From NCBI GenBank assembly GCA_964577465.1, contig CAZNZF010000004.1:834-64833 (forward strand): a stretch of 64,000 bases of DNA, given 5' to 3'. Numbering within the stretch: position 1 is the stretch's first letter; each line of letters opens with the position of its first letter. The translations under genes were made by a program, and so were the position numbers. The notes beneath the pieces were generated by a model that had not been told where the DNA came from, searched no databases, and saw nothing but the letters and a program-made list of their open reading frames with translations. This DNA is from an uncultured bacterium (GTDB lineage: Bacteria > RBG-13-66-14). Below, in pieces: positions 1,562 to 64,000 of this stretch.

Positions 1562-2119
1562 TCATCCGCTCAACGCCTTCAGTTTTCCCCAGGAGAGGCG
1601 GACGGTCCCGGCGTCGCCCGTCAGTTTGACCCAGACCTCGCGCCGGTCCAGCTCCTTCCACACCGAGCCCGACGGTCCCTCGCAGGCACCGACGACGAAG
1701 ACCAGCCGTACGTCGCCTCCCCGACCGTTCGGCGTGATGAAGAGTTCGGCGTGGTACGCGCCGCGACCGACGAGGGCCCGGTCGGTGACGAAGCCCGACC
1801 AGCGAAAACCCTCCGGCGCGGGGTCGTTGAACTCCAGCCAGGCGGACGAGCTCCGGCCGGGCTCGAGCCGCCCCGCGGCGTACCCGCCGTACCCTTCGGC
1901 TTCGACCGACCAATCGTCCGGTGTCAGGACGCCGAGAAAGCCGCAGGCCGTTTGGTCGGAGTCGGCCATCACGTGGAGCGTAACGGGGAAGCGCTCGCCG
2001 GGCGCAATCCGCGGCGGCGCCTCCACGGAGGTGAAGTCCAAGCAGCCCGTCGCCAGAATCCCGGCCAGCAGCGCGCAAACCGAGCGTAGCGAGCTACGCC
2101 CCTGGCGAAATGCCTTCAT
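1562..2119 (-). CDS. Secreted lipoprotein (..LLAGILATGC lipobox-like), paralog of 763..1317. C-terminal ..SWGKLKALSG
   Basis: ORF 1562..2416 trimmed to ATG at 2119 with a GGAGG RBS upstream. Shared internal motif with the neighbouring gene. The first ~11 codons are encoded by a copy of repeat family B. Confidence 0.55.
   Translation of the reverse strand: MKAFRQGRSSLRSVCALLAGILATGCLDFTSVEAPPRIAPGERFPVTLHVMADSDQTACGFLGVLTPDDWSVEAEGYGGYAAGRLEPGRSSSAWLEFNDPAPEGFRWSGFVTDRALVGRGAYHAELFITPNGRGGDVRLVFVVGACEGPSGSVWKELDRREVWVKLTGDAGTVRLSWGKLKALSG
2078..2112 (-). repeat. Repeat family B copy (ATTTCGCCAGGGGCGTAGCTCGCTACGCTCGGTTT on the minus strand) embedded in the 5' end of the lipoprotein CDS
   Basis: Matches copies at 9648, 27781, 28998, 29086, 29824, 51448 and 63940. 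Read in frame as ..KAFRQGRSSLRSV.. (the N-region of the signal peptide). Confidence 0.7.
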
Positions 2120-8836: not shown

Positions 8837-8850
8837 GATAGTTTTTTGCT

Positions 8851-9594
8851 TTAAGTTAGGAAGAGCCAGTAGTTCAGGGTGACCATGCCGATGCCTAAGA
8901 GGGCCCCGGCCACTATCTCTCTCCAGGTGTGCACGCCGCGGCGGATGCGGGCGTCGGAGATGATGAGCGCCAGGAGGAACACGAGCACCGACACCAGCGG
9001 GTTCTCGGTCACCAGGGTGACGATGGCGAAGACGGCGAAGCTGACCGCGGAGTGGCCCGAGGGCATCCCCCCGTGGAGCGGCGTCCCGCGCCCGAGGAGC
9101 ACCTTGCCCAGGATGACCAGCACTATCACCAGGGTGAAGCTGATGAGGGTGACGTACTCGGGGCTGCCCTTCACGGCGCGGATGGCGGAGAAGATGTGGG
9201 GCTTCAGGTCCTTGAACAGAACCAGATAGCCGACGATGACCGCCGTGATGGCCGCGATGAAGACCGCCCCCGCCGAGATGTCCTTCACCAGTTTGGCCAG
9301 GGGGTGGTAGGTGGTGGTCATCAGGTCCAGCGCCTTCTCCAGCGCCGTGTTGATGAGCTCCGTCACCAGGACGAAGGCCACCGCCAGGATGACCAGGACG
9401 AGGTCGCTGCGGTCGATGTTTAAAAACAGCGACCCGGCGATGACCAGGACGCCGACGAGGAAGTGGATGCGGATGTTGCGCTCGGTCTTGAGGGTGTAGA
9501 TTATCCCCTCGAGGGCGTTGTTGAGGGACTGGGACATCCGGGGCTTCGTCCCGATGGTGCTCCGGCGCCGTTTCTGTTTTTCCTCGGGCATCAA
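8851..9594 (-). CDS. dgkA: Diacylglycerol/undecaprenol kinase (DgkA) fused to a PAP2 phosphatase domain
   Basis: N-terminal ..LNNALEGIIYTLKTERNIRIHF.. matches prokaryotic DgkA. C-terminal PSGH ... SDARIRRGVHTWREI matches PAP2 motifs. Start may be M1 or M20. Confidence 0.65.
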   Translation of the reverse strand: MMPEEKQKRRRSTIGTKPRMSQSLNNALEGIIYTLKTERNIRIHFLVGVLVIAGSLFLNIDRSDLVLVILAVAFVLVTELINTALEKALDLMTTTYHPLAKLVKDISAGAVFIAAITAVIVGYLVLFKDLKPHIFSAIRAVKGSPEYVTLISFTLVIVLVILGKVLLGRGTPLHGGMPSGHSAVSFAVFAIVTLVTENPLVSVLVFLLALIISDARIRRGVHTWREIVAGALLGIGMVTLNYWLFLT

Positions 9595-9684
9595 TCGCTA
9601 CGCTTCGTTTACGGTTGCGCCGTCGCAGGTATGCCGGGGCATTACCCGGTTTGCCGGGGGCATAGCTCGCTTCGCTTCGTTTCC
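9594..9684 (+). repeat. Repeat family B copy (full copy ~9648-9684: GGTTTGCCGGGGGCATAGCTCGCTTCGCTTCGTTTCC) plus partial fragments and one family-C-like unit (ACGGTTGCGCCGTCGCAGGTATGCC)
   Basis: Intergenic, between the ybeY stop and the dgkA start. Sequence identity to other copies. Confidence 0.65.
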
Positions 9685-9695
9685 GTCGACGATCC

Positions 9696-15967: not shown

Positions 15968-15984
15968 GATAACCTAGTGTAAGG

Positions 15985-16004
15985 CAAGGGGTTTAACCCC
16001 CTTG
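15985..16004. repeat. Palindrome family A copy (CAAGGGGTTTAACCCCCTTG)
   Basis: Between the propeller gene stop (16012) and the cytochrome b start (15967). Confidence 0.65.
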
Positions 16005-16011
16005 TCTCATC

Positions 16012-26930: not shown

Positions 26931-27314
26931 TTAGGGTGTACTTCCGGGACCCGGAGCCAGCAGCTTCTCGATGCGCTTGACCACGTCGAGGGGGTTGAAC
27001 GGCTTGGTCACGTGCAGCGCGATGCCGATCTCCCGGCTGATTCTCTTGTAGAGCGGTCCCGAGTGACCCGTGATTATGGCGACGGGGGTCGACGACAGAA
27101 GCTCGTCGGCCATCAGGTCGTGGTACAGCTTGTAGCCGTCCAGGCCCGGCATAAGGAGGTCCAGGATGATGACGTCGGGCCGTTCCCGCATCGCCGCGGA
27201 GAGGACGGTGGCGGGATCGGAGAGGGAGATGGTTTCATGCCCCCGGCTCTTGAAGGCGAGTCCCAGCGTCTCGACGATGTGCCGTTCGTCGTCCACGATC
27301 ATGATTCGGGCCAT
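26931..27314 (-). CDS. Stand-alone response-regulator receiver (CheY-like)
   Basis: MIVDDERHIVETL.. with an acceptor Asp in ..VIILDLLMPGLDG.. and ..TKPF... Confidence 0.8.
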   Translation of the reverse strand: MARIMIVDDERHIVETLGLAFKSRGHETISLSDPATVLSAAMRERPDVIILDLLMPGLDGYKLYHDLMADELLSSTPVAIITGHSGPLYKRISREIGIALHVTKPFNPLDVVKRIEKLLAPGPGSTP

Positions 27315-27334
27315 TTAGGATGCCTCCCGGCACA

Positions 27335-27757
27335 TCATCGAACGCCCGTGCCCGCCTCGCGGTTCACGGCCGGCTCGTCGGCGGACCCCGGCGCTCGTCC
27401 GAGCAGGCGCTCCACCTGCTCGACCACCGCGTACGGCTTGAAGGGCTTGGTCAGATGCAGCCCGGCGCCTAACCCATCGCTGATGCGCCGGTAGATTTCG
27501 TCGGGCTTCGCGGTGAGCAGGACCACCGGAATCCGCGACACCCGTTCCTCCTCGCCCAGACGGTTGAGCACCTCGTAGCCGTCCATACCGGGCATCATGA
27601 GGTCGAGGATGATGGCGTCGGGTCTTTCCCGGTCGGCGAGGGGGACGCACAGCGTCGCGTCGGACACGCCCACGACCTGGTAGCCCCGTTTCTCGAAGGC
27701 CAGGGAGAGTGTCTCGACGATGTGCCGCTCGTCGTCCACTATCATTATCTTCGGCAT
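27335..27757 (-). CDS. Stand-alone response-regulator receiver (CheY-like), tandem paralog
   Basis: N-terminus identical to the neighbour over MIVDDERHIVETL. ..AIILDLMMPGMDG.. and ..TKPF... Confidence 0.8.
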   Translation of the reverse strand: MPKIMIVDDERHIVETLSLAFEKRGYQVVGVSDATLCVPLADRERPDAIILDLMMPGMDGYEVLNRLGEEERVSRIPVVLLTAKPDEIYRRISDGLGAGLHLTKPFKPYAVVEQVERLLGRAPGSADEPAVNREAGTGVR

Positions 27758-27780
27758 GGATCCCGCCCCGCCCCTTTCTT

Positions 27781-27831
27781 TTTACCGGGGCATTACTCGC
27801 TTCGTTTGGTTTTCAAGGGGTCTCAAGCCCC
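27781..27831 (+). repeat. Repeat family B copy (TTTACCGGGGCATTACTCGCTTCGTTTGG, missing one CTTCG unit) followed by a degenerate family A half-palindrome (CAAGGGGTCTCAAGCCCC)
   Basis: Intergenic, upstream of the REC gene at 27757. Confidence 0.6.
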
Positions 27832-27985
27832 CCGGTTCCCGGCCCTCCGCCGTGTAGCTGATTTAATTCCCACCACGCAAGTGTATAATACACCGCCGCC
27901 CGTTCCCGCGCAACCCCTCAGACGCGGCGACTTCCGATTTTACACCTCTTCAATCCCCGCGGCCGCGGCCGTTCCGAGGCCGCGA

Positions 27986-28960
27986 TTACCCCGGGTAGTC
28001 GCCCTTCCGGTCCGCGGCCCCGCCCTCCGTAGTTCCCCGTCGCTCGTGGACCACTATGTTTCCGGGTTTGCCCTTGCCGAACTTCTTCAGCTCGGTGACG
28101 ACGTCGGCAATCTCGGCGGTGGTGGTGAAGCGCCGCTTCTCGCTCGACACCAGCTCGATGGTCAGGGTGAGCGTGGCGGGATACCGGCGCAGGCAGCCGG
28201 TGCGGTCCTTTATCTCGTAGTAATCCCGCCTCAGGTCGGCCTCGTCGAAGTAGTCCTTCACGCCCTCGCCGAAGAGCTCGATGACCCGGTCCGCCAGCTT
28301 CTCGGCCTCCTGGTGGTAGCAGAGCATCATGAAGTCGTCCCCGCCGATGTGCCCGACGAAGTCCTTCGGCTTGCCCAGCGCCCGGTTGGTCTGGACGAGG
28401 CAGTGCGTGAGAAGACGGATGACGGAATCGCCGCGGGCGTAGCCGTAGTAGTCGTTGAAGCTCTTGAAGCGGTCGATGTCGGCGTAGAAGAGGGAGTAGG
28501 GTTTGCCGGAGCGGATGACTTCCTTGAGCCGATGCTCGATCTCCAGGTTTCCCGGCAGGCCCGTCAGCGGGTTGCAGCCGAGTTGGTAGCGCGTGCGCGA
28601 CAGGACCATCTTCGCCCGGGCCAGGAGCTCCCGCTGGGAGAAGGGCTTGGCGATGTAGTCGTCGATGGAGTGCTCGACGCCCCGCTCGAGGTCGATGATG
28701 TCCTGCTTGGCCGTCAACAGAATCACCGGGATGTGGGCGGTCTCGAAGTCCTTCTTCAGCTCGGAGCACACCTGATAGCCGTCCATCCCCGGCATCATCA
28801 CGTCCAGGACGACGAGCTCCGGGTTGAAGACCTTGACCTGCTCCAGGGCCTCCTCGCCCGAAGGGCAGGTCAGGACCGTGTAGTTGTCGCCCTCGAATAC
28901 GGTCTTGACGATCGAGCGGATGTCGGGGTCATCGTCAACGACCATCACCCGTGTCGACAT
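27986..28960 (-). CDS. Response regulator with GGDEF domain (PleD-like; GGDDF variant motif)
   Basis: REC domain (VMVVDDDPDI.., ..VVLDVMMPGMDG..) followed by a GGDEF domain with ..HIGGDDFMML... Confidence 0.8.
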   Translation of the reverse strand: MSTRVMVVDDDPDIRSIVKTVFEGDNYTVLTCPSGEEALEQVKVFNPELVVLDVMMPGMDGYQVCSELKKDFETAHIPVILLTAKQDIIDLERGVEHSIDDYIAKPFSQRELLARAKMVLSRTRYQLGCNPLTGLPGNLEIEHRLKEVIRSGKPYSLFYADIDRFKSFNDYYGYARGDSVIRLLTHCLVQTNRALGKPKDFVGHIGGDDFMMLCYHQEAEKLADRVIELFGEGVKDYFDEADLRRDYYEIKDRTGCLRRYPATLTLTIELVSSEKRRFTTTAEIADVVTELKKFGKGKPGNIVVHERRGTTEGGAADRKGDYPG

Positions 28961-28997
28961 GCCTCGTCCTTTGGAAACGGACCGATTACGGACGGCG

Positions 28998-29030
28998 ATT
29001 TGCCAGGGGCATAGCTCGCTACGCTCGGTT
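28998..29030 (+). repeat. Repeat family B copy (ATTTGCCAGGGGCATAGCTCGCTACGCTCGGTT)
   Basis: Intergenic, between nadD and the REC-GGDEF gene. Confidence 0.7.
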
Positions 29031-29085
29031 CACCGGGGCGTCACTATCGCGCGAATCAGGGGGCCATTATAAAACTCCCCCCCCC

Positions 29086-29120
29086 GTTTTGCCAAGGCAC
29101 TACTCGCTTCGCTTCGTTTT
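29086..29120 (+). repeat. Repeat family B copy (GTTTTGCCAAGGCACTACTCGCTTCGCTTCGTTTT)
   Basis: Directly abuts the nadD stop at 29122. Preceded by a GGGGG...CCCCCCCCC hairpin (~29059-29084). Confidence 0.7.
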
Positions 29121-29823: not shown

Positions 29824-29872
29824 CAAGGGGTTTTGCCAAGGGCATAGCTCGCTACGCTCGGTTAACCCCTTG
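29824..29872 (+). repeat. Composite: family A palindrome arms (CAAGGGGTT / TTAACCCCTTG) flanking a family B core (TTGCCAAGGGCATAGCTCGCTACGCTCGG)
   Basis: Same composite structure occurs in inverted orientation at 51448..51497. Confidence 0.7.
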
Positions 29873-35983: not shown

Positions 35984-36616
35984 TTAGAAAAAGCGGCCGA
36001 GGAGATACCACCAGGCGCCGGTGGCGAACATGACGAGGTTTACCAACAGCAGCGCCCCGCCCACGATGTGGCAGACCCGCCACAGTTTCCAGCGCTTCTC
36101 GACGATGAGCACCTTGGCGGCGCAGAGCGCCAGCCCGACGAAGCCGATGACCGTGTGCAGCACCACGCGGTCCGTGTTGCCGCGGACGCCGTGGGCTACG
36201 AGGCAGATGCCGGTCAACAGGACGTAGAGCCCCAGGGTCGTCCAGCCGAAGACGCGGTGCCTGCGACGCAGCTTCGCGCCACGCTCCGGGTCCCGCTTGG
36301 CCGCCGGGCGGGAGGTGTAGATGAGGATGTACGCGGTGAGCGCCGCCAGGAGCGTCAGCACGGTCAGGCTGCTCTTGAGGAGCCACAGCGGCGAGGCGGT
36401 CACCGGAGGCTGCGGGATGTCGTGCCCCGCCTCGACCCACCCCGCGAGGCTGTGGCCGTGGGCCGCGTAGTACAGCCCGCGCTCGTTGCGCTCCCCGCCG
36501 CCCTGGGGGTTGAGGTGGCAGTAAACGCAGTCTCTGCGCTCCCGGTCCGCGTACTCCGGCCGGGCCCAGGCGCATAAAACGAAAATGAAAAGTAGAAGAA
36601 CGGCGGTCTTTTTCAT
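35984..36616 (-). CDS. Membrane mono-heme c-type cytochrome (signal peptide + CVYCH, then 4 TM helices)
   Basis: One CxxCH motif after the signal peptide, followed by hydrophobic helices. The start overlaps the stop of the giant gene by 4 nt. Confidence 0.55.
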   Translation of the reverse strand: MKKTAVLLLFIFVLCAWARPEYADRERRDCVYCHLNPQGGGERNERGLYYAAHGHSLAGWVEAGHDIPQPPVTASPLWLLKSSLTVLTLLAALTAYILIYTSRPAAKRDPERGAKLRRRHRVFGWTTLGLYVLLTGICLVAHGVRGNTDRVVLHTVIGFVGLALCAAKVLIVEKRWKLWRVCHIVGGALLLVNLVMFATGAWWYLLGRFF

Positions 36617-39600
36617 GGCGCCCTGCGGGTGAAAACGCCGAAGCCGCCCCAGTACGCCGGGCTCGGGAAACTGGCCCGGGTCGAGAGCTGGGCCAGCCGG
36701 AGCGCCTCGGCGGGCGGGAGGCCGTCGGCGAGGCCCAGGAAGAGGTTGCGGACGGTGATGGCGGTGGCGATGTCCGAGGTGCGCCAGAATGTGGCGGCCA
36801 CGGCGTCCGCCCCGGCGATGAGGAAGGCCCGCGCCAGGGACAAGAATTCCAGGCCGTCGGCCCCCTCGGGCACCGCCGTCTCGCAGGCCGAGAGGACCGC
36901 CAGCTCGCAGTCCAGCGGCAGGGCGAGAATGTCCCGCACGGTCAGGAGGCCGTCGTCGCCCGTTCCCTCGTCCGGCGTCAGGAGCAGGGCGGAGGAGAGC
37001 GGGTCGCCCGGGGCGAGCCGGGTGTGGGTGGCCAGGTGCAGCCGACGGGCACGGCCTGCCAGCTCGGTGTAACGGCTCTTCAGGGCGGCCCGGCCGGTGA
37101 ACGGTGCGGGCCCTCCGGGGAACAGGCCGGCGATGCTCTCCGCCTCCTTCTCGGCGAAGGGGAGGTCGTCCCGGGGATTTCCCGTGGTCGGGTTGGCGAA
37201 GCTGACCAGCGGCAGCTCGCCGTATGCGTCGTTCACGGGCGTGAGCCAGGCGGTGAAGCTCGGGGCGTAGGCCAGGGGGAAGCGGTCAAGCAGGCAGCCG
37301 TCACCGAAGGGCAGGACGGCGAAGGGCACGTAGGCCAGCTCGCCATCGGGGATAATCAACAGCTCGTCCGGGTCCGCCGCGGATAGCTCGTCGGCCCAGG
37401 GTCCGATGACCTCGGCGGCCAGGGCGGCGGCGAGCGCGTCGAAGCGGTCCGGGTCGCCCCGGGAGGTGAAGAGGGTGGTCAGCTCCCGGACGGCGTTCCG
37501 GGCGGCCTGGGCCGGCCTCTCGACGACCCTCACCCCGTCTCCGTCCACCAGCCAGCTCCAGAGGCGGTCGCCGTCCATGTGATAGACGAGGGCTGCGCGG
37601 CGGTCGCCGACGCCCCGGATGATTTCCTCCGCCGTCGCCGTTTTGCCGACGACCCCGGCGAAGGCGGGCCACCGCTCGGCTATCTCATCCACGAGCGCGT
37701 CCTCTTCCGCCAGCGCCCCGTCCAGCCCCGCGTCGCTCTCCGCCCCGAGGAGGAGGGAAATCCGCCGGGACAGCTCGGTGTACCGGGTCAGGGCCTGCCC
37801 GAGCTCCGCGTCCCGCCAGGGGATGTCCGCCGACAACAGGGTCCGCTCGCCGACGACGGAGCGGCAGATTTCCTCCAGCTCCAGGCTGCGGCGAAAATCC
37901 CCGGATTCGAGGGCGAGCCCGATGCCGTGGGTGAAGAGCTGCTTGGCCCCGACGAAGATGCCCTGAAGAGCAGCGGAGAGGGGCGACTCGGGCGCGGCCT
38001 GCCGGACGGTTTCCAGGGCCAGGTCGAACTCGGCCAGCGCGGTCGGCCGGTCCCCGCTATTTTCGGCCAGCCGGCTCAACTGGTGGTGGACCCGCCAGAG
38101 GAGGTCCGGCCGGTCGGCGGCGACCGCCCCCCTCCGGGCCCGGTCAAGGCAGTCGGCCGCCTTCGCCGGGTCGTCGGGGAGGACGAGGCGGGCCACGTCG
38201 CAGTAGCCCAGAATCGTCCGCGGGTTCGTCAGGTCCGCGTCCGCCAGGTAGCGCTCGTGGAAGGTTCTCGCCTCGGCGGTATTCCCCTCCAGCTCGGCCA
38301 CGGCGGCCAGGTGCCGCAGGTCGTTCGACACCCCCTGGGAGTAGCCGATCCGCCGGTCCTCGGCGAGCGCCTCCTCGAAGTGGACGCGGGCGATTCCCAG
38401 GCGGCCGCTCGAGCGGTACACGAGCCCCAGGTTGGAGTGGGCGGCGGCGGTTTCCTGGGCGTCGCCGGAGGCCTCGGCCTTCTCCAGGGCGGCCGTCGCC
38501 GCGGCGAGCGCCTCGTCGGTCCGGCGCATCCCCAGCAGCGACAGCGCCTCGCTGCCCAGGAAACGGGCGATGAGGCCGGGCGGCCCGTTCTCCCCCAGCT
38601 CCGCGAGGACCTTTTGGCTTATCTCCAGGGATTGGTTGAAGGACCGGTCCTTCCAGTACGCCTTGGCCAGGCCGAAGAGGTTGTCCAGGCGCGCCGCGGG
38701 GGTGTCGGGCTCGCCGGGGTACTTCTCCGCCTTGGCCAGGCCTTCCGTGTGGTACGCCCGGGCGGCGGGGAGGTCGCCCTTCTCCGTGGCGATGAAGCCC
38801 AGGAGCGCCAGGGCCCTCGCCTCACCCACCGGGTCGCCCAGGGAGACGAAGGTCAGTCGGCTGAGCTCGGCGTAACCCCCGGCCCGTTCCTGGTCGTCCA
38901 GGTTGGCCTGGTAGAGGTTTCCCAGCTCGAGCGTTACCTGGGCCCGCGTAGCCTCGCGCTCCGCCCCCACTGCCAGGTCGGCGGCCAGGTTGTACTCGAC
39001 CGCCGCCTCCTCGAAGCGGTAGGCGCGCACCAGCAGACGGGCGCGGTCGAGGTGGCCGGAGATGTAGGGGTCGACGAGGGCGGCGACCTCGGGTCCGCCC
39101 AGTTCCCCCAGGGTATCCAGGTAATGGCCGTTGGCCTCCAGCCCCGCGTCCAGGTCGCCCGTCTCGGCCTCCAGGGCGCTCAGGCGCCGATAGGCCTTGG
39201 CGCGGGAGACCGGGTCGCGGGCGGCCTCGAGGAGCTTCACCTGGTACTCCAGCGCCAGCTTCAGCTTCCCGGAATCGTGCGCAGCGCTGACGGCGGCCCC
39301 CCAGAGCTGCAGCTTCTTCTCGTCGTCCCCCAGCCGCTCCGCCATCCCCGCGGCCTTGAGGAACTGGTACAGGGCGGTCTCGAAATCCCCCTCCCCCTGG
39401 TAGGCCAGGGCCGAGCGGACCGTGTTCGAGAACTGCTCCTCGGCGAAGGTGCGCGCCTCGACGTCGGAAAATCCGGCGAACCCCAGGAGTATCGCCCCGG
39501 CCCAGTCCATCGTGGACGGGTACTTCTCCCGCACCTCGAGCTGGGCCCGGCGCACCGCCTCGGCCGGAGGCTCGCTCAACCGCCAGCGCGCGAAGGCTTC

Positions 39601-42600
39601 CGCGAAGAGGTTCCGCGCGCCGTCGGCGGCGGTGTTGGGGGAGGTGCAACCTACGAAGATGAGGCTCGGCACCCCGGCGTAGGTGAAGCACCGGGTCAGG
39701 ACGGCCAGGCCGTTGCCGAGGCCGGGCCCCAGCTCGATACGGTTCCCGGTGTCGTTGAGGCTCACGACGTTGATGTCGAGGGTGTTGCCCAACAGGGCGT
39801 TGAAGTTCAACAGCCCCTGGTCGCGGCGGGCGAGGCGGCCGGTCTGTGCCTCGGAGAGCCGGAAACCGAAGGAGAGCGGGTCTCCGCCCGAGAACTCCAG
39901 GGGCACCGTCATGTCCAGGTGGCCCTTCGAGGTGATGGTTTCCACCAGCTCCGACTCGGTGACGTCGGCGGGGGCCATGTCGCCGGAAACCTCCGCGCTT
40001 CTCTCCTGCGCGGCCCGGCGGTCCGCATCCGGAACGCCGACGCGGCCGACGAAGAACATCGGTTTCGAGTAGCTCGCGTTCCGGGCGTCGTAGCAGTATG
40101 TCAGCTCGGAGAAGGAGGCCACGACCGCCACCGGGGTGGTCTCCACCAGGGGCCGGCCGTCACCCGCGGGGAGGGCGGGCCAGGGTACGCGCCAGAGCAC
40201 GCCGTCCGGCGCGACGTAAACGGTTCTGGCGCCGCTCAACTCCCCCGCGTACGGGGAGAGGAGGAGGTGTCCCAATTCGGCGAGGGCGCCCGAGTCCCCG
40301 GCGTCCGCCCGGTCCACCAGCTCCCGGGCCGCCGCGCGGCTGAGCCCGATTCTCGCCTGCCGCACGCCGCCGGAATCCAGGAGCCAGGCGTAGAGGGCGT
40401 CGCCGGCGAAGAAGTACGTCAGCAGAATCTCGCCCCCGCGCAGCACCTCCGCGGCATCCTCGAGCCCGGTGGGATACACTCCCACCAGGGCGGTCAGGAT
40501 GCGTTTCCGGCCGTGCTGCTCCTCGACTATCTCGCGGTAGTGAAGCCGCTCGTCCACCAGTTGCTTTCGCAGCGTCTCCAGCCCCCCGGCCACCGCGGGG
40601 TCCGCGGAGAGGCTTTGGGCGGAGATTCGGTCGCTCAACTCCGATATCCGTTCCTGGGTGAAGAGCTCGTCGCCCAGGAACAGCTTGTCCATCTCGCTGG
40701 CCAGCTCGAGCTCCCGGTCGGCGAATATGCTCGCCATGTACGCCTGCTGCTCACGGTCCACCAGTCGGAGCGCGTCCTCGGCGGCCCCGGCGTCGGCCGA
40801 CAGGACGATCATCTTCTCGTACAGGTCGCGGATCTCGGCGAAGGTCACCGAGAGGGGCACGGTTTGGGTTTTCTGGCCGATTTCGCGCTCCACCGTTTCC
40901 AGGGCCTGTTCCAGGTAAACCTTGGCCCGGCCGGGCTCCCCGCGTGAGAGGTAGAGCTCGGCCAGTGAGCGGCTCGCCCGCCAGGACAGCCGGTCCAGGG
41001 CGAAGAGGTTCGCCCGGTCCCGCGCCCGCTGCAGGAGGTTCTCCGCCTCGGCGAAGCCTAGCTGCACCAGCGCCACCCCCCGGTTGTGCTCGCAGGCCAC
41101 TGCGCCGGCGGCGTCCCCCAGCGTTTCGTAGGTGGTCTGGGCGGTGAAGAAGGCGGCCTCGGCCTTTCGTATGCGCTCGTACCGCTCGACGGAGGTTTCG
41201 TTCTCGCCCACGAGGTACAGGCGGAGGAGCCCGCGGGCGTTGGCGATGCGCGCCCCGAGCTTCGGGTCCGCCACGCTGTAGAGTTTGGGGGCGTACTCCT
41301 CGAGCGCGCCCTGGACCTCGGCGGCGATGCCGTGGAGGTCGGTCGTCCCCTCGTCCGTCCCCCAATCGGGGAACAGCTCCTCGACGGGCGTCCCCTCCGT
41401 GCGCACCCGGTCGGCGATGTTCATGGCGATTTCCGCCAGGTTGGAGAGCGCCACGAGCGCGCCCCGGTACGCGCCGCCCGCCAGGCACGCCTGCATGGAG
41501 GCGAGGTAGTTCTTCGCCGCCTCGGCCAGGTCGCCCAGCTTGTACGACAGGTAACCGATGCGGTTGTAGATTCTCCCCCTCTCGGCGGAGACCACCTCCT
41601 CGTTCTTCTCGCCGGAGGTTTCCTCGAAGAGGGCCAGGCGCTCCTCGTAGCAGGAGATGGACGCGCGGTAATCGCCCCGACGGGAGTGGCACTTGGCCGC
41701 GAAGGTGTAGATGAGCTCCTTCTCGCCGGCGAGGTCGAACCCCCGGGCCGCCTCCGAAGTGTCGCCCACCAGCCCCGCGCTGAAGGAGAAATCCAGCAGG
41801 CCGCTCGAGGCGGTCGAGTAGCGGGCCCGACCGAGCTGGTCCAGGACGTCGAGCGCCTGCTGGAAATAATCGAGGGCGTCGGCGTAGAGCTGGAGGAAGT
41901 AGTAGCAGACGCCGATGTTTCTCAGGGCGTAGGAGCGCTTGGCTCGGGCGGCCAGGGCCGTCTCGGCGGCGCGGGTACGGTCGCCCAGGTCCGGCAGGTC
42001 CGCGGCGGCGGCCTCCTCCCGCCGGGCCACCCGGTCGTACAGGTCGGCGGATTGGATGAAGCAGTTCAGCGCCTTGTCGTAGGCCTCCTGCTCGAAGTAG
42101 ACCAGCGCCTGGCCGTCGGTGCACATGAGGACGCCCACGTCGTTGCCCATTTCGGCGAAGATGTCCCGGGCGGCCCCGTAGTGTCGGACGGCCTCGGGGT
42201 AGTTCTCGGTGTGGCGGGCGCAGCGGCCGGCGTTGAAGTGGTAGCGGGCTTCCACCTCCGCCTCGCCGGGCCCGGTCATCAACTCCTCGCGCCTCGCGTA
42301 GTGCTCGTAGGCCGGGCCGAAGTTGTACAACAGGTAGCTGGCGTTGCCGAGGGCCAGCTCGATGTCGGCCTCGAAGGCCGGGTACTCCGTCTCGTCGTTC
42401 TGGGCGCGGGCGAGGCTCAGGTAATCCAGCGCTTTTTCCAGATAATCGCCGGCCTCCCGCTCGTTGTCGTTTTCCCTCTCCCGCATGGCGCGCTCGAGAT
42501 CGATCCAGCCCAGGGTGAACCAGGCGGCCGGAAAGACGAAGCGGAGGCCCACCGCCCGGTTGAGCTCGGCCTCCGCCTCGGTCAGCTCGACGTAGTTGAC

Positions 42601-44919
42601 CCCGCTCCCCGGCCCGGTGGAGGGGTAGGTCAGGGCCAATCCGAGGGCGTAGCGGGCGATGGGGTCGTCGGGGTCGTCCCGGAGGCGGTCCCGGTACTCC
42701 CGCACGATGTCGTCCCGCTTGCCCATGTCCTCGCAGTAGAGCTTGACCAGTGCGTGGTGGCCCCGGTCGTTGGAGTAATCGAAGTCCATGGCGCGGCGGA
42801 TGAGCGCCTCGGCGCGCTGGAGGTCGTTGCGCCGGCGATAGCCGTCCGCCTCCTCCAACAGGAGGCGGCGCAGGGTCTGGGAGGCGCGGATGGACTCCAA
42901 CCCCCCCGAAAGCTCGCCGTAGGAGCCCACGATGCGCTCCAGGGCCGTCGCGGCCTCCTCGGGGTGTCCGAGGTCCTTTTCCACGTCGGCTATCTTGAAC
43001 AGGACGCTCACACCGAGGAAGCTCGCCCGCGGGTAAGCCGTCAGCACCTCGCGGTAGGCTACCAGGGCCTCCTCCTCCTGACCCATCCGCCGGAGTTCGT
43101 CGCCGATTTGACCCTGGGCGTAACCGGCCAGCTCTGGGTAGTCGGCAAAATCGCGGGTCATCTCCTCCAGGGCCACGATCCGCTCCACGTCCCGCAGGCT
43201 GCCCACGGTGAGGCTGACCAGGTCGCGCTGGGTCAGGTTCTGCCACCTCTTCTCGGCGGGGTAGTTCGTGAGGATGTAGAGGTAGCGGTCCCGGGCCTCG
43301 CCGTGGCGTCCGAGCCGCTCCAGGGAGCGGGCCGCCTTGAAGTCCGCCTCGGCGCGCAGGCTGAAATCGGAGCCCAGACGCGCGGCCGCGTCGTAGCTTT
43401 CCAGCGCCTCCTGGACCCGGCCCACCCGGTACAGGACGTCCCCGGCCAGGACGAGGCTGCCGCAGGCGACCTCGGGGACGTACTCCACGGTCTCCGCCGC
43501 CAGGTCCCGCGCGCGGGCCAGGATGTCGGGGGTCGCCTCCTCCACCGTCCGGCCCTCGTCCACGTACCGGTACGCCGCGGGGAGTTGGTCGAAGTAGATG
43601 GCCCCGAGCCACTCCTGCTGGAGCTTGGACAGCACGCTGGCCGCCCCGGCGGTTATGCCCCCCGGCCAGCGGCCGGCTACACCCGCGCGTTCGAGACCGG
43701 CCTGCCGGCTCCAGCCGAGGTTCTCCATGTCGGAGGCGAGCTCGAGCTGCGCCCGGGCGGCCAGGTCCTCCTGGCGGTAAAAGGCGTCCACGAAAAGGGT
43801 GAAGGCCAGCAGCCGGGCGGTGGGGTCCTCGACGACCCCCCGCGCCAGACGCAGGGCGGTGGAGGGATTTTCCGGCAGCTCGGGGGGGGCGAGCGGCATG
43901 CTCCAGATGTCGCCGTTAAAGGAGCGGTCGGAGCTGAAATAGACGAGGGTGCCGTCGGTGTCGGCGAACCCGTCCCAGTCGGCGCCCGCAGTGAGGCGGC
44001 GGTAGGCCGCCTGACCGGGTTTAAGGCGGTCGGCCGCGGCTGCTCCGGGCGTCGAACCCTCCAGAATGCGCTCCAGCGCCTCCGCTTCCAGAAAGCAGAG
44101 CTGGGCGTTGTCCCGGGTGTCAATGACGCCGTCGGAGTTGGTGTCCAGGGCGAAACGGGTGAAGAGGAGGCCCTCCGGTCTCCAGCGCGGCCGGACCATG
44201 ACCCCCGCCTCGGATACCAGGGGCCGGCGAAGGCCGTCCGAGAGCCGCCGGGCCTCCAGGGTGCTGCCGCCCATTCCGGGGACGACGTAGCACAGCCAGG
44301 ACCCGTCGGGGGAGAGGGTCGGGTTGGCGCCGCCCGCCTCGGTGATGCGCTGGAGCCCCTCTCCCGTCCGCTCCACTCGGAAGACGTTGGACAGGTTCGG
44401 GGGCGGTTCCCATTCCGCGTCCACCGCCCCGGGAGGCGGCCGATAGTCGGCGGGCTCCGACCGGGTGAAGTAGATGTAGTTCTCGTCGGGCGTGGGTATG
44501 GGGGTCTCGTCGCGGCCCAGGTGGGTCGTCAGCCGCGTGGCGAAGCCCAGCTCGATGCTGTAGCAGTAAATCTCGCCCTCGGGGTCGTCACGGGTGCTGG
44601 TGAAGTAGATTTTCGTCCCGTCGGGCGACCAGACCGGGTTGTAGTCGTCGGCGGTGTTGGTCGTGAGCTGGGTCTGCTCGCGGCTCTCCAGGTCCATGAG
44701 CCAGATGTCCGAGTTCCCGCTCGCGTCGGACACGAAGGCCAGCCGGTTGTCCCGGCGGTCGACCGCCGGGGAGGACTCGAAAGAAATGCGGGTGGTGATT
44801 TGGACCGACTCGGGCAGGGGGAACGTCTCCAGCCCCTCCCCCTCTGGGGCGTCGGCTCCGACGGCCGGCGCGAGGAGGACCGGGAGAAACGCGCAGATGA
44901 ACGGGTAAAGACGCGGCAT
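36613..44919 (-). CDS. Giant secreted multidomain protein: TolB-like propeller + TPR arrays + degenerate CHAT + TPR arrays + C-terminal CHAT (caspase-like) domain
   Basis: 2768 aa, single open frame. Signal peptide MPRLYPFICAFLPVLLAPAVG. N-terminal SPDG...IYF repeats. C-terminal ..LHLATHT.. and ..LAVLSACETA.. His/Cys dyad. The internal CHAT-like region has no Cys at the catalytic position (..VVSLNDTGN..). Confidence 0.75.
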   Translation of the reverse strand: MPRLYPFICAFLPVLLAPAVGADAPEGEGLETFPLPESVQITTRISFESSPAVDRRDNRLAFVSDASGNSDIWLMDLESREQTQLTTNTADDYNPVWSPDGTKIYFTSTRDDPEGEIYCYSIELGFATRLTTHLGRDETPIPTPDENYIYFTRSEPADYRPPPGAVDAEWEPPPNLSNVFRVERTGEGLQRITEAGGANPTLSPDGSWLCYVVPGMGGSTLEARRLSDGLRRPLVSEAGVMVRPRWRPEGLLFTRFALDTNSDGVIDTRDNAQLCFLEAEALERILEGSTPGAAAADRLKPGQAAYRRLTAGADWDGFADTDGTLVYFSSDRSFNGDIWSMPLAPPELPENPSTALRLARGVVEDPTARLLAFTLFVDAFYRQEDLAARAQLELASDMENLGWSRQAGLERAGVAGRWPGGITAGAASVLSKLQQEWLGAIYFDQLPAAYRYVDEGRTVEEATPDILARARDLAAETVEYVPEVACGSLVLAGDVLYRVGRVQEALESYDAAARLGSDFSLRAEADFKAARSLERLGRHGEARDRYLYILTNYPAEKRWQNLTQRDLVSLTVGSLRDVERIVALEEMTRDFADYPELAGYAQGQIGDELRRMGQEEEALVAYREVLTAYPRASFLGVSVLFKIADVEKDLGHPEEAATALERIVGSYGELSGGLESIRASQTLRRLLLEEADGYRRRNDLQRAEALIRRAMDFDYSNDRGHHALVKLYCEDMGKRDDIVREYRDRLRDDPDDPIARYALGLALTYPSTGPGSGVNYVELTEAEAELNRAVGLRFVFPAAWFTLGWIDLERAMRERENDNEREAGDYLEKALDYLSLARAQNDETEYPAFEADIELALGNASYLLYNFGPAYEHYARREELMTGPGEAEVEARYHFNAGRCARHTENYPEAVRHYGAARDIFAEMGNDVGVLMCTDGQALVYFEQEAYDKALNCFIQSADLYDRVARREEAAAADLPDLGDRTRAAETALAARAKRSYALRNIGVCYYFLQLYADALDYFQQALDVLDQLGRARYSTASSGLLDFSFSAGLVGDTSEAARGFDLAGEKELIYTFAAKCHSRRGDYRASISCYEERLALFEETSGEKNEEVVSAERGRIYNRIGYLSYKLGDLAEAAKNYLASMQACLAGGAYRGALVALSNLAEIAMNIADRVRTEGTPVEELFPDWGTDEGTTDLHGIAAEVQGALEEYAPKLYSVADPKLGARIANARGLLRLYLVGENETSVERYERIRKAEAAFFTAQTTYETLGDAAGAVACEHNRGVALVQLGFAEAENLLQRARDRANLFALDRLSWRASRSLAELYLSRGEPGRAKVYLEQALETVEREIGQKTQTVPLSVTFAEIRDLYEKMIVLSADAGAAEDALRLVDREQQAYMASIFADRELELASEMDKLFLGDELFTQERISELSDRISAQSLSADPAVAGGLETLRKQLVDERLHYREIVEEQHGRKRILTALVGVYPTGLEDAAEVLRGGEILLTYFFAGDALYAWLLDSGGVRQARIGLSRAAARELVDRADAGDSGALAELGHLLLSPYAGELSGARTVYVAPDGVLWRVPWPALPAGDGRPLVETTPVAVVASFSELTYCYDARNASYSKPMFFVGRVGVPDADRRAAQERSAEVSGDMAPADVTESELVETITSKGHLDMTVPLEFSGGDPLSFGFRLSEAQTGRLARRDQGLLNFNALLGNTLDINVVSLNDTGNRIELGPGLGNGLAVLTRCFTYAGVPSLIFVGCTSPNTAADGARNLFAEAFARWRLSEPPAEAVRRAQLEVREKYPSTMDWAGAILLGFAGFSDVEARTFAEEQFSNTVRSALAYQGEGDFETALYQFLKAAGMAERLGDDEKKLQLWGAAVSAAHDSGKLKLALEYQVKLLEAARDPVSRAKAYRRLSALEAETGDLDAGLEANGHYLDTLGELGGPEVAALVDPYISGHLDRARLLVRAYRFEEAAVEYNLAADLAVGAEREATRAQVTLELGNLYQANLDDQERAGGYAELSRLTFVSLGDPVGEARALALLGFIATEKGDLPAARAYHTEGLAKAEKYPGEPDTPAARLDNLFGLAKAYWKDRSFNQSLEISQKVLAELGENGPPGLIARFLGSEALSLLGMRRTDEALAAATAALEKAEASGDAQETAAAHSNLGLVYRSSGRLGIARVHFEEALAEDRRIGYSQGVSNDLRHLAAVAELEGNTAEARTFHERYLADADLTNPRTILGYCDVARLVLPDDPAKAADCLDRARRGAVAADRPDLLWRVHHQLSRLAENSGDRPTALAEFDLALETVRQAAPESPLSAALQGIFVGAKQLFTHGIGLALESGDFRRSLELEEICRSVVGERTLLSADIPWRDAELGQALTRYTELSRRISLLLGAESDAGLDGALAEEDALVDEIAERWPAFAGVVGKTATAEEIIRGVGDRRAALVYHMDGDRLWSWLVDGDGVRVVERPAQAARNAVRELTTLFTSRGDPDRFDALAAALAAEVIGPWADELSAADPDELLIIPDGELAYVPFAVLPFGDGCLLDRFPLAYAPSFTAWLTPVNDAYGELPLVSFANPTTGNPRDDLPFAEKEAESIAGLFPGGPAPFTGRAALKSRYTELAGRARRLHLATHTRLAPGDPLSSALLLTPDEGTGDDGLLTVRDILALPLDCELAVLSACETAVPEGADGLEFLSLARAFLIAGADAVAATFWRTSDIATAITVRNLFLGLADGLPPAEALRLAQLSTRASFPSPAYWGGFGVFTRRAP

Positions 44920-45833: not shown

Positions 45834-45867
45834 GCAAGGGGTAAGGCAAGGGGTTTAAACCCCTTGT
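45834..45867. repeat. Palindrome family A copy with a duplicated left arm (GGGCAAGGGGTAAGGCAAGGGGTTTAAACCCCTTG)
   Basis: Intergenic, after the OMP gene. Confidence 0.65.
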
Positions 45868-45939
45868 TCCGCGCCTTGTCTCCATTGATTCTTGACCAAA
45901 GGGGTCGTCCTTTATATCATGGGGGCCGTGAGGACGGCG

Positions 45940-51430: not shown

Positions 51431-51447
51431 TTTGATGCATAATGAGA

Positions 51448-51497
51448 CAAAGGGGTTAACCGGGCGTAGCGAGCTATGCCCTTGGCAAAACCCCCTG
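51448..51497 (-). repeat. Composite family A arms + family B core, inverted orientation relative to the 29824 copy
   Basis: CAAAGGGGTTAACCGGGCGTAGCGAGCTATGCCCTTGGCAAAACCCCCTG. Confidence 0.7.
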
Positions 51498-51500
51498 CCT

Positions 51501-51535
51501 TCAGGCGGCCGTCCCCATGGACGGCCGTTTTATTG
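51501..51535 (+). terminator. Rho-independent terminator after pckA
   Basis: GGCGGCCGTCCccatGGACGGCCG followed by TTTTATT. Confidence 0.7.
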
Positions 51536-53486: not shown

Positions 53487-53931
53487 CGTGGGCCGTCCGC
53501 CGTCCGCCGGCGTCATCCGTCTGCGCCCCCATCACCTCTTGTGCCTTGTGGCCTTTCAGGGTGAGGGGTACTCGCCGGAATTCATCGAGAAGGCTCTGGG
53601 GCTCCAGCGTGCCCTCCTGGCCGACGACGCGGTAGTCGAGCTGGTCCGCGGTCCGGACGACCTGTGCGACGGCTGCCCGGAGATGAGCCGGGAGTGCGTT
53701 TCCCTCGCTCCGGATTCGGGCGTGGAAAAGCTCGACCGCGCCGCCTCCGCCCTTCTGGGTGTTACACCAGGGCGCCGCCGGGCGGCGGAACTGCTCCTGT
53801 CCATGAGGAAAACCTTCACCCCCGAGCGCGGGTACAAGGTCTGCGCCGGTTGTTCCTGGCTGCCCCGGATGGACTGCCCGCGGGTCATCGCAATCCGGCT
53901 GAAGGAGCTTTTCCCGAAACAAGGGGCTTGA
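53487..53931 (+). CDS. DUF1284-family Cys-rich protein
   Basis: ..IRLRPHHLLCLVAFQGEGYSPEFI.. matches the DUF1284 N-terminal signature. Conserved Cys pairs (CDGC, CAGC). Only a GTG start is available, 2 nt after the rng stop. Confidence 0.5.
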
Positions 53932-53939
53932 GCCCCTTG
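53920..53939. repeat. Palindrome family A copy (CAAGGGGCTTGAGCCCCTTG) overlapping the stop codon of the DUF1284 gene
   Basis: The last codons ..K Q G A * are encoded by the left arm and loop of the palindrome. Confidence 0.65.
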
Positions 53940-56790: not shown

Positions 56791-56836
56791 GTCTACATGT
56801 TTTTTAACACCCCGCCTGGTGCCCGGTGGAGTAGAA

Positions 56837-56950
56837 ACCCCTCACCCGAGCCCGTAGGCGAGCCTCCCCCCAGAGGGCGATGGGATAAAAAGAACCCCCC
56901 TCCCCGGCCCGTAGGCGAGCCTCCCCCCAAGGGGGGGAGGGAGAACAAGG
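56837..56950 (+). repeat. Tandem ~56-bp direct repeat with G/C hairpins, immediately upstream of rph
   Basis: Two units sharing GCCCGTAGGCGAGCCTCCCCCCA. The second unit contains the perfect hairpin CCTCCCCCCaaGGGGGGGAGG. It ends at the rph RBS AAGGAG. Confidence 0.6.
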
Positions 56951-60632: not shown

Positions 60633-60637
60633 TGAGG

Positions 60638-60659
60638 GCAAGGGGTTTAAACCCCTTGT
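60638..60659. repeat. Palindrome family A copy (GGCAAGGGGTTTAAACCCCTTG)
   Basis: Starts 6 nt after the recJ stop. Confidence 0.65.
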
Positions 60660-60689
60660 CTCCTCTAGGATCGGCTAGGACGGTCTTTC

Positions 60690-62913: not shown

Positions 62914-64000
62914 GTGACCGATTACCGGCCCACCATCGCCTTCGAGGTCCACCTGCAGCTCGACACCGCGTCGAAGGCCTACTGCGGCTGCGCCGTCGTC
63001 TTCGGCGCCGCGCCCAACACGGTCGTCTGCCCGGTGTGCACGGGGCAGCCCGGGGCGCTCCCCGTCCCCAACCGCGGCGTCTTCGAGAGGGCCGTCCGCG
63101 TCGCCCTGGCCCTGGGCTGCGAAATAGCGGAAAAAACCCACTTCGACCGGAAGAACTACTTCTACCCCGACCTGCCCAAGGGCTACCAAATCAGCCAGCA
63201 CCCGGTGCCCGTGGGCCGCGTTGGTGAGTTTCGCTTCCCCGCGGAGCGCTACGGCGAGGCGGCCGACGCGGTCGTCAAAATCAGCCGGGTGCACGTGGAG
63301 GAGGACACCGCCAAGGCGGTCCACGACGCAAAGGGCGACACCCTCATCGACTTCAACCGCGCCGGGGTGCCGCTCATGGAAATCGTCACCGAGCCCTGCA
63401 TCCCAAATCCAGACGTAGCCTACGCCTACCTCACCGCGTTGAAGGAGACCCTGGAGTACCTGGACGTCTCCTCGTGCAGCATGGAGGAGGGCTCGCTGCG
63501 GGTGGACACCAACATCTCCGTGGCCCCGGCGGATTCAATAAAGCTGGGGACCAAGGTGGAGGTGAAGAACCTGAACTCGTTCAAGGCGGTCAAGGCGGCG
63601 CTGGAGTACGAGTTCGAGCGCCAGACGGGGATTCTGGCCTCGGGGGGGAAGGTGGTTCAGGAGACGCGGCACTGGGACGACCGCGAGGGCGCGACCCTGC
63701 CCGGCCGGGTGAAGGAGGAGGCGATGGACTACCGCTACTTCCCCGAGCCGGACATCCCGCCGTTGGCGATTCCCCGGGAGTGGGTGGAGGAGATTCGGCA
63801 AAAACTGCCGGAGCTGCCGCAACAGGCCCGCGAGCGTCTGCACGCCGCCGGTCTTTCGGGCTACGACGCCTGGGTGCTGGTGGCGGAGCGGGACCGGCTG
63901 CGCTACTACGAGGCGGTCGTCGCGGCCGGCGCCCCCGCGAAACGAAGCGAAGCGAGTAATGCCCTGGCAAAACCGGCCGCCAACTGGGTCAACGGCGACC
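62914..64000 (+). CDS. gatB: Asp-tRNA(Asn)/Glu-tRNA(Gln) amidotransferase subunit B (3' end outside window)
   Basis: GTG start, then ..TIAFEVHLQLDTASKAYCGC...GALPVPN...NYFYPDLPKGYQISQ... Open to the window end, so not listed in the ORF track. Confidence 0.85.
   Translation, partial: MTDYRPTIAFEVHLQLDTASKAYCGCAVVFGAAPNTVVCPVCTGQPGALPVPNRGVFERAVRVALALGCEIAEKTHFDRKNYFYPDLPKGYQISQHPVPVGRVGEFRFPAERYGEAADAVVKISRVHVEEDTAKAVHDAKGDTLIDFNRAGVPLMEIVTEPCIPNPDVAYAYLTALKETLEYLDVSSCSMEEGSLRVDTNISVAPADSIKLGTKVEVKNLNSFKAVKAALEYEFERQTGILASGGKVVQETRHWDDREGATLPGRVKEEAMDYRYFPEPDIPPLAIPREWVEEIRQKLPELPQQARERLHAAGLSGYDAWVLVAERDRLRYYEAVVAAGAPAKRSEASNALAKPAANWVNGD
63940..63972 (-). repeat. Repeat family B copy inserted in frame within gatB
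   Basis: AAACGAAGCGAAGCGAGTAATGCCCTGGCAAAA is 33 nt and is read as KRSEASNALAK, between ..GAPA and PAANWVNG... Confidence 0.7.

Follow-up and report, generated by a model that had tools for sequence, protein, structure and literature searches.

In-frame copies of a 30-nt interspersed repeat in gatB and other genes of Candidatus Coatesbacteria

The stretch of DNA analyzed here (the window) comprises 64,000 nt of contig CAZNZF010000004.1, positions 834 to 64,833 of the forward strand, and its last gene is gatB. The product finds GatB proteins as its best matches and contains the GatB_N and GatB_Yqey domains (PF02934 and PF02637 in Pfam). It aligns with the solved chain 3h0l_B at E = 2e-133, and it has the conserved catalytic and K-x-x-x-N-W residues and the fold of solved GatB. 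Within this otherwise canonical gene lies a segment that resembles a repeat found elsewhere in the window. The features at the locus are as follows.

62914..64000, plus strand: gatB coding sequence, GTG start at 62914, continuing beyond the window end; the full protein has 489 aa.
63940..63973, plus strand: inserted repeat unit of 30 nt, whose register may be placed anywhere from 63940-63969 to 63944-63973, read (K)RSEASNALAK.
63960..63969, plus strand: predicted mini-hairpin of this copy, TGCC-CT-GGCA.

Positions 63940-63972 read AAACGAAGCGAAGCGAGTAATGCCCTGGCAAAA, translated KRSEASNALAK. The original prediction took these 33 nt and 11 residues as an in-frame repeat insertion into gatB; the match to the repeat stands, while the size has to be revised. 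Alignment with empty orthologous sites sets the insert at exactly 30 nt, or 10 aa. The gap is exact against nine such DNA sites, among them L002-L006, L147 and L148, and the L147 site (GCG, then AAACCGGCC) equals the window sequence minus 30 nt. Empty sites read GCG-AAA-CCG-GCC-GCC-AAC-TGG, in which the ancestral GCG-AAA-CCG encodes Ala-Lys-Pro; one Lys codon (AAA) within 63940-63972 was already present before the insertion. The tetranucleotide AAAC flanks the insert on both sides (63940-63943 and 63970-63973) and leaves the boundary ambiguous by these 4 nt. Similarity to the repeat extends over 33-37 nt, of which only 30 nt are new DNA. As the length of the unit is a multiple of three and its frame is free of stops, it is translated as ten extra residues in GatB.

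The 33-nt segment matches a minus-strand copy at 29087-29119 in 31 of 33 positions (2 mismatches), and a comparable match arose in 0 of 100 dinucleotide-preserving shuffles. With a degenerate pattern for the family, the window yields 8 copies where 0.08 would be expected; nhmmer returns 8 clear copies and 1 degenerate copy. With no shuffle reaching this match and with family copies so far above expectation, the gatB match is real and not due to chance. The repeat unit measures 30 nt and has the consensus ACCGAGCGAAGCGAGCTATGCCCCCGGCAA; the gatB copy is the B2 variant, AACGAAGCGAAGCGAGTAATGCCCTGGCAA. The remaining copies in the window are listed here.

2078..2109, plus strand: copy lying antisense in the 5' end of a lipoprotein-like ORF of the minus strand (ATG at about 2119).
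9573..9685, minus strand: two intergenic copies, 72 nt apart, between ybeY and a DAG-kinase/PAP2 gene; a clear copy at 9650-9681, a degenerate one at 9573-9613 and a fragment at 9634-9645.
27781..27811, minus strand: B2-like copy with a shorter 5' side, intergenic, about 25 nt upstream of a response-regulator start codon.
28999..29030, minus strand: B1 copy, intergenic, upstream of a response-regulator/GGDEF gene.
29088..29118, minus strand: B2 copy of 30 nt, the closest to the gatB insert (nhmmer E = 4.6e-5), intergenic, right after the nadD stop.
29832..29863, minus strand: B1 copy in the loop of an A-type palindrome, AAGGGGTT...AACCCCTT.
51458..51489, plus strand: B1 copy in an A-type palindrome, downstream of a PEP carboxykinase gene; missing in the RBG_13_66_14 ortholog.

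By its sequence, the copy at 29088..29118 may represent the donor type of the gatB insert. Third-position G+C is 4/10 for the ten inserted codons (hand count), compared with 0.89 for the whole of gatB. Such a low value fits DNA with a non-coding evolutionary past.

The segment is absent in about 15 close relatives of the window GatB. The protein alignment places it in the window and in P0001 only; it is missing in nine other close relatives (66-93% identity) and in distant GatB. Four further loci from metagenomes that are closely related are likewise without it, as are 50 distant ones, whose spacing at the insert position is uniform, and it does not occur in the solved structures of GatB from Aquifex, Thermotoga and Staphylococcus. 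In agreement with the original prediction that orthologs have no such segment, no GatB from a repeat-free genome carries it. The 90% cluster of P0001 consists of six proteins, P0001 and P0361-P0365. One of them, P0362, is encoded on a 69,086-nt NCBI contig, matches all 362 residues of the window at 100% identity and remains intact as far as its C-terminus (489 aa); as judged from this identity it is the window's own full-length GatB. In P0001 and P0365 the insert is present and differs by a single substitution (S to G); P0361, P0363 and P0364, at 95-97% amino-acid identity to the window, have no insert.

An assembly or sequencing artefact, namely a repeat-induced chimeric join near a contig end, had to be considered, as arrays of the repeat break assemblies in this lineage (N gaps adjoin them in L025 and L055) and the insert site lies 28 nt from the window end. 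This reading is scarcely credible. The gene continues in frame beyond the insert, the source contig encodes the complete protein, and two assemblies from other samples share the insertion with the single substitution and with flanks that are 94% identical. The reading frame is intact in all three filled alleles from independent assemblies (P0362, P0001 and P0365), and the claim of an in-frame repeat within a working gatB is borne out. Comparison of the window with L001, whose gatB encodes an intact 491-aa protein and also carries the insert, gives dS of 0.19 and dN/dS of 0.12. This dN/dS between carriers indicates that the gene is still under purifying selection, so that the insertion would behave as a tolerated loop extension.

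Both carrier inserts are the same rare B2 variant with identical junctions, from which we infer a single origin. A tree of the first relatives showed the carriers as monophyletic, a result overturned by closer empty alleles. Informative sites disagree among the four closest gatB alleles: 10 place the carriers together, 13 unite L001 with L148, which is empty, and 3 favor the remaining arrangement. Since the carriers do not form a clean clade, one has to assume precise loss or an exchange of alleles as well. The gatB indel is a strain-level polymorphism whose distribution reflects recombination or precise loss across the two AAAC copies. The interleaving of carriers and non-carriers, which makes at least one precise loss or allele exchange plausible, also lends something to the converse reading, in which the ten residues are ancestral and were deleted in the relatives. 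We consider that reading very improbable: the segment is missing in all deeper relatives (65-93% identity) and in unrelated bacteria, it is a near-identical copy of a dispersed repeat, and its codon composition is foreign to gatB. The repeat family is present on contigs with an empty gatB (L005 and L146) and is therefore older than the gatB event. Taken together, a single 30-nt unit of a Coatesbacteria-specific interspersed repeat was very probably inserted into gatB at GCG-AAA^CCG. The distribution of alleles dates this event within a shallow strain group, that is, as recent.

The position of the insert in the protein was examined by alignment and by modeling, in line with the mapping onto a GatB structure proposed at the outset. 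GatB of S. aureus is divided into a cradle (residues 1-294), a helical domain (295-407) and a tail (412-475) (PMC2811023). The insert aligns between L339 and T340 of this protein, which places it in the helical domain, outside the catalytic cradle and the tRNA-binding tail. An AlphaFold2 model of P0001 (mean pLDDT 92.8; TM 0.85 against 3al0_B) presents the insert as a loop between helices 326-337 and 353-369, with a local pLDDT of about 81, below that of its surroundings. In the model the ten residues lengthen the loop between two helices of the helical domain. Three proteins of other lineages (P0016, P0019 and P0079) have unrelated short indels or insertions at the same loop, and the site is on this account permissive.

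This placement also bears on a co-option of the added loop, which would alter GatCAB in its regulation, in the assembly of the transamidosome or in the discrimination of tRNAs, and which positive selection would maintain. The insert adjoins the nearly invariant K-x-x-x-N-W motif, it persists over a dS of about 0.19 between carriers with one change only (a non-synonymous one), and a PSEASYAxGK-like reading of the unit recurs in RecG and in L015 and L022 (see below). Against these points, empty alleles coexist in strains that are 95-97% identical, another frame or strand of the unit gives a different peptide in other genes, the local model confidence falls below that of the surroundings, and the loop accepts unrelated small indels. 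We regard co-option as improbable. A tolerated, near-neutral extension of the loop is probably the better description of the gatB insertion.

The distribution of the family was assessed by a scan for the exact pattern in one genome per species, across 185,579 species. The scan gave 59 stretches (67 exact matches), all of them within three Candidatus Coatesbacteria MAGs. A scan of viral contigs for the unit gave 0 matches, Rfam at gathering thresholds gave none over the whole window, and a literature search on Candidatus Coatesbacteria found nothing on repeats. The units are mostly intergenic. They abut head-to-tail in arrays with a 30-nt period (start-to-start spacing of 30 nt), a same-orientation unit follows directly after 23 of 98 units, and mosaic and partial units are frequent in these arrays. 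Nesting is common as well: 41/98 units lie in the loop of an A-type palindrome, GACAAGGGGTTT/AAACCCCTTGTC, and a C-type hairpin, GGCGGGGAT...ATCCCCGCC, is a second nesting site. The host hairpins are GC-rich, with units often in their loops. The ends of the unit (ACCGAG... and ...GGCAA) form no terminal inverted repeats, and no unambiguous target duplication was seen at the sites read; the AAAC flanks in gatB are explained by the unit's own periodic junction and are therefore no real target duplication.

Several other identities for the unit were set aside. A CRISPR array is ruled out by the direct abutment of units without unique spacers. The spacing of hexamers, judged by eye, fits neither a sigma-54 nor a sigma-70 promoter. 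Co-orientation with transcription holds for 8/9 units in the window, but the family as a whole has 16 in the same and 12 in the opposite direction (p = 0.57). GC skew within the window is uninformative for unit orientation.

Filled and empty sites are seen beyond gatB. The genome RBG_13_66_14 is about 90% identical to the window over two syntenic blocks and served as the reference for turnover. The A-type palindrome at window 53920-53939 is empty and its counterpart in RBG_13_66_14 is filled with about three units. The A+B element at window 51433-51503 is absent in RBG_13_66_14; conversely, an A+B mosaic of RBG_13_66_14 is absent at window 8840-8855. The copy at 2078-2109 contributes FRQGRSSLRSV to the n-region of a lipoprotein signal peptide; the ortholog in RBG_13_66_14 matches this copy at 40/40 nt, has flanks of about 85% identity and starts with GTG.

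Comparison of the units with one another points to a small conserved structure near the 3' end. Family members share the form YGCC-NNN-GGCR, a hairpin of 4 bp, in which positions 19 and 29 covary (T-A in 79 units, C-G in 18, T-G in 1 and C-A in 1). A subset of 72 units with a 3-nt loop has five polymorphic sites: the 5' A/T, two loop positions and the Y-R pair. Within this subset Y and R are perfectly linked (p = 6.5e-14), while all other pairs of sites are unlinked (p >= 0.4), and the C-G state of the pair is found on five different backgrounds. Across 35 distinct units the helix 19-22/26-29 has 100% of its cells paired, and 0 of 500 shuffles reach the observed values. The support that compensatory covariation lends to the mini-hairpin is real but thin, because it comes from a single base pair. 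Folding of a single sequence also suggested a larger 5' hairpin (GCGWAG/CTAYGC); this was rejected, as no covariation backs it and at one position 21/35 sequences do not pair. In the gatB copy the loop measures 2 nt, which weakens the mini-hairpin; this copy folds at -7 kcal/mol (z = +0.45 against shuffles) and is not a palindrome.

To look beyond gatB, we screened for units that open frames read through and whose two flanks have the codon composition of coding DNA, and the genes were identified by translation and Pfam. Five genes besides gatB were recovered with in-frame units.

L047: YmdB; unit read TERSELCHGQ; these 10 aa are missing in 12 relatives.
L064: RecG-type helicase; unit read PEPSEASYASG; a 10-aa gap in 11 RecGs.
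L045: TsaB-like protein; antisense reading of the unit.
L022: large AAA16-TPR regulator; several units.
L015: lipoprotein with an in-frame unit; no Pfam family.

In-frame units are hence present in at least six other genes, for YmdB, RecG, the TsaB-like protein, the AAA16-TPR regulator and two lipoproteins. The copies in the TsaB-like, AAA16-TPR and lipoprotein genes are without close orthologs showing an empty site. A homolog search for the RecG gave no close Coatesbacteria relatives, and the empty recG site thus lacks a counterpart at the DNA level. The PSEASYAxGK-like peptide results from the same reading frame in RecG, L015 and L022, and the peptide differs between genes that use another frame or strand of the unit. 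The frames in use (sense 0, sense 1 and antisense 1) are those rarest in stops, which occur in 5, 4 and 0 of 97 units, respectively. Use of the most stop-poor frames is the pattern expected from insertion that is random with respect to frame, with selective removal of the disruptive cases.

The sites of insertion in three of these genes can be compared.

gatB: GCGAAA^CCGG, read directly from empty alleles.
ymdB: GCGAAA^ATCGGC, read from the filled sequence; one empty relative has ACCACA^ATCGGC, and others have Lys there.
recG: CCGGA^AAAAAC, reconstructed.

All three genic sites end in G-AAA, like the unit's own 3' end GGCRAA, with the proviso that two of them are reconstructed from non-identical relatives. 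Since a G-AAA target resembles the 3' end of a unit, a new unit looks as if it had been appended to a unit, and the same process would also yield head-to-tail arrays. Whether the genic targets are themselves hairpin loops was considered and rejected: the reconstructed empty gatB, ymdB and recG sites folded as single-stranded DNA no better than shuffles (z = -0.02, -1.78 and +1.03, respectively).

For the spread of the unit we favor, with confidence that falls just short of even, a copy-in of the single-stranded unit by a trans-acting, structure-specific enzyme. The preference is given because the mini-hairpin appears to be maintained by compensatory change. The enzyme would recognize the unit through the conserved 4-bp mini-hairpin; its closest analogues would be the HUH/Y1 transposases that move REP/REPIN and the ends of IS200/IS605. 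The new copy would be joined on the 3' side of a short target, G-AAA, which mimics the 3' end of the unit itself (GGCRAA). Such a process would explain the 30-nt head-to-tail arrays, the lack of real target duplication and a preference for exposed hairpin loops. A search of the 41 ORFs of the window against Pfam gave no transposase, integrase or reverse transcriptase. A tblastn search with IS200/RAYT queries, through Coatesbacteria loci that amount to a fraction of any genome, gave no match and is a weak test. To our knowledge, the substrates of HUH enzymes are all larger than 30 nt with a single 4-bp hairpin, which counts against the enzyme.

The main alternative, which we consider quite possible, dispenses with a dedicated enzyme. 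Template switching guided by microhomology would let a nascent strand ending in ...GCGAAA anneal to an ectopic GGCAAAA/GGCGAAA junction, copy one 30-nt unit and return, with arrays and partial units coming from the same slippage. The homology at the gatB junction is 6/7 nt (GCGAAAC compared with GCAAAAC), GCGAAA is found at the ymdB site too, and many units in the arrays are mosaic or partial. The outcome of the two transposase searches fits this route, as do the ends of the unit without terminal inverted repeats and the lack of real target duplication. What template switching leaves unexplained is the compensatory upkeep of a 4-bp hairpin amid freely drifting sites, the high copy number and dispersal to unrelated loci, and the constant length of the unit together with its restriction to one phylum.

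The original prediction likened the gatB segment to the Rickettsia palindromic elements (RPEs). The likeness holds for behavior, given the in-frame copies in YmdB, RecG and others, and fails for palindromy, size and family membership. RPEs are lineage-specific dispersed repeats that interrupt unrelated housekeeping genes without breaking the frame; they add a peptide segment at points that the protein fold can accommodate and leave the genes functional (PMC10969869). The Coatesbacteria unit is likewise in frame in several unrelated genes, with gatB intact and under a dN/dS of 0.12. RPEs, however, are palindromes of about 100-150 bp with a stable hairpin, whereas the Coatesbacteria unit has 30 nt, about five times smaller, and its gatB copy is non-palindromic, with only the 4-bp mini-hairpin conserved. 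The two also differ in phylum and appear unrelated in sequence, the latter on the basis of the Coatesbacteria-only distribution and the lack of an Rfam match. The Coatesbacteria unit, moreover, is arrayed head to tail and lies nested within other hairpin loops, features that we know of in no RPE. As the unit fails on size, palindromy and taxon, its relation to RPEs is an analogy of behavior and not one of family membership.

Other short repeats come closer in one respect or another. For the REP/BIME/REPIN sequences, movement by a trans-acting single-strand RAYT (HUH Y1) transposase has been proposed (PMC3116915). Like REPs (20-40 nt), the Coatesbacteria units are short, mostly extragenic, high in copy number and lineage-specific, contain a hairpin and occur in mosaic clusters with other short motifs. 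REPINs are inverted doublets, whereas the present units are direct and head-to-tail; the stem is only 4 bp plus loop, and no RAYT was seen in the 41 window ORFs or in the Coatesbacteria loci sampled. REPs are also extragenic by definition, while the Coatesbacteria units are repeatedly translated.

The closest analogue in scale and nesting that we know of is the small dispersed repeat (SDR) of cyanobacteria. In Nostoc and other cyanobacteria, Elhai et al. reportedly described in 2008 units of 21-27 nt located in other repeats, in conserved hairpin contexts. Orthologous filled and empty sites are said to be known for the SDR from that work. The Coatesbacteria unit differs in phylum and in sequence, and in-frame insertion into several conserved proteins is, as far as we know, no described hallmark of the SDR. 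MITEs are non-autonomous and short and give occasional in-frame fusions with host ORFs (PMC10969869). The Coatesbacteria unit is several-fold shorter than typical MITEs and differs from them in having neither terminal inverted repeats nor an unambiguous target-site duplication.

The in-frame repeat insertions in Coatesbacteria genes are well supported and moderately surprising. In-frame colonization of housekeeping genes by repeats has so far been treated largely as a peculiarity of Rickettsia, and the same outcome is now seen in an uncultured, free-living phylum with a unit of only 30 nt. There is a practical side to this: the units break assemblies, and in comparisons of MAGs they may pass for genuine lineage-specific features of proteins. 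A bolder reading, possible and at present doubtful, is that the unit represents an undescribed ultra-small mobile element, a mini-hairpin module copied by a structure-specific enzyme to G-AAA sites, those in hairpin loops and in coding sequences included. If true, it would mean an active remodeling of the surface loops of essential proteins across a candidate phylum. Filled and empty alleles that are only a few percent apart provide a natural experiment on the movement of very short repeats, with the junctions, the G-AAA sites and the covarying mini-hairpin as handles, and equally on the tolerance of essential enzymes to the insertion of random peptides.

The alignment of the 30-nt units across the family (A6) provides insight on the constraint that acts within the repeat. 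Within the unit, covariation is perfect between positions 19 and 29, which are either T-A or C-G. The 3-nt loop that separates this pair ([C/T]C[C/T]) is free to vary, and none of the remaining variable sites are linked. This pattern across the aligned units indicates that the 4-bp mini-hairpin formed by the unit is under selection; an example from the window is as follows.
63960-63969, mini-hairpin of the unit

The unit is also hosted by other hairpins. A second repeat family, located in intergenic spacers, presents a near-perfect palindrome of 20-24 nt, (GA)CAAGGGGTTTAAACCCCTTG(TC), and it is common for the 30-nt units to be nested within its loop. Palindromes of this family are present at the following positions of the window.
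1540-1569, palindrome
15983-16012, palindrome
45845-45874, palindrome
53920-53939, palindrome, empty in the window; its counterpart in the related genome RBG_13_66_14 is filled with approximately three units
60637-60666, palindrome

A third hairpin context with the unit in its loop, GGCGGGGAT[nnnA]-unit-ATCCCCGCC(CTAC), is seen in other Coatesbacteria loci (L009, L010, L016-L018, L035, L039-L041, L057 and L062; for example, L018 around 1000-1050). At L035, unit-free forms of this hairpin (GGGCGGGGTTTCCTAACCCCGCC) are found close by.

Partial and mosaic units are common in the 30-nt family. At 9620-9650 (-), for example, the unit copy at 9650-9681 is immediately followed by part of a second 3' half (GTAATGCCCCGGCA). 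Tandem arrays of units abut runs of N in two Coatesbacteria loci (L025, about 6270-6320, and L055, about 4620). Arrays thus break MAG assemblies or introduce scaffold gaps into them, and estimates of copy number are too low.

The window has a second translated copy of the unit, at 2078-2109 (+), within a minus-strand ORF that starts at ~2119. Read antisense, this copy encodes FRQGRSSLRSV, which is part of the n-region of a signal peptide of the lipoprotein type (MKAF...CALLAGILATGC). The copy is the same in RBG_13_66_14 at 40 of 40 nt, with flanks that are only ~85% identical; the start codon of the ORF is ATG in the window vs GTG in RBG_13_66_14. As for the copy translated in gatB, the same GatB loop in three unrelated bacteria (P0016, P0019 and P0079) has its own short insertions of 3-8 aa (columns about 370-385 of the GatB alignment, A1), which shows that this position in the helical domain is generally tolerant of indels. 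A 2,768-aa ORF at 36613-44919 (-), with PD40, many TPR repeats and a CHAT protease domain at its C-terminal end, has no relation to the gatB insertion.

A 57-nt sequence (AACCCCTCACCCGAGCCCGTAGGCGAGCCTCCCCCC...), unrelated to the 30-nt unit, is present at 56836-56949 as two tandem copies (81% identical), with the RNase PH gene just downstream. Similar motifs, rich in CCCTCTCC/GGGAGAGGG, flank units in several RBG_13_66_14 loci.

Three response-regulator genes, one of which includes a GGDEF domain, lie in a row and have common DNA stretches that are 66-82% identical (window 26931-28960 and 27771-29120). Three repeat units are located in the spacers that immediately precede two of the three genes, and the units could conceivably affect regulation as a side effect.
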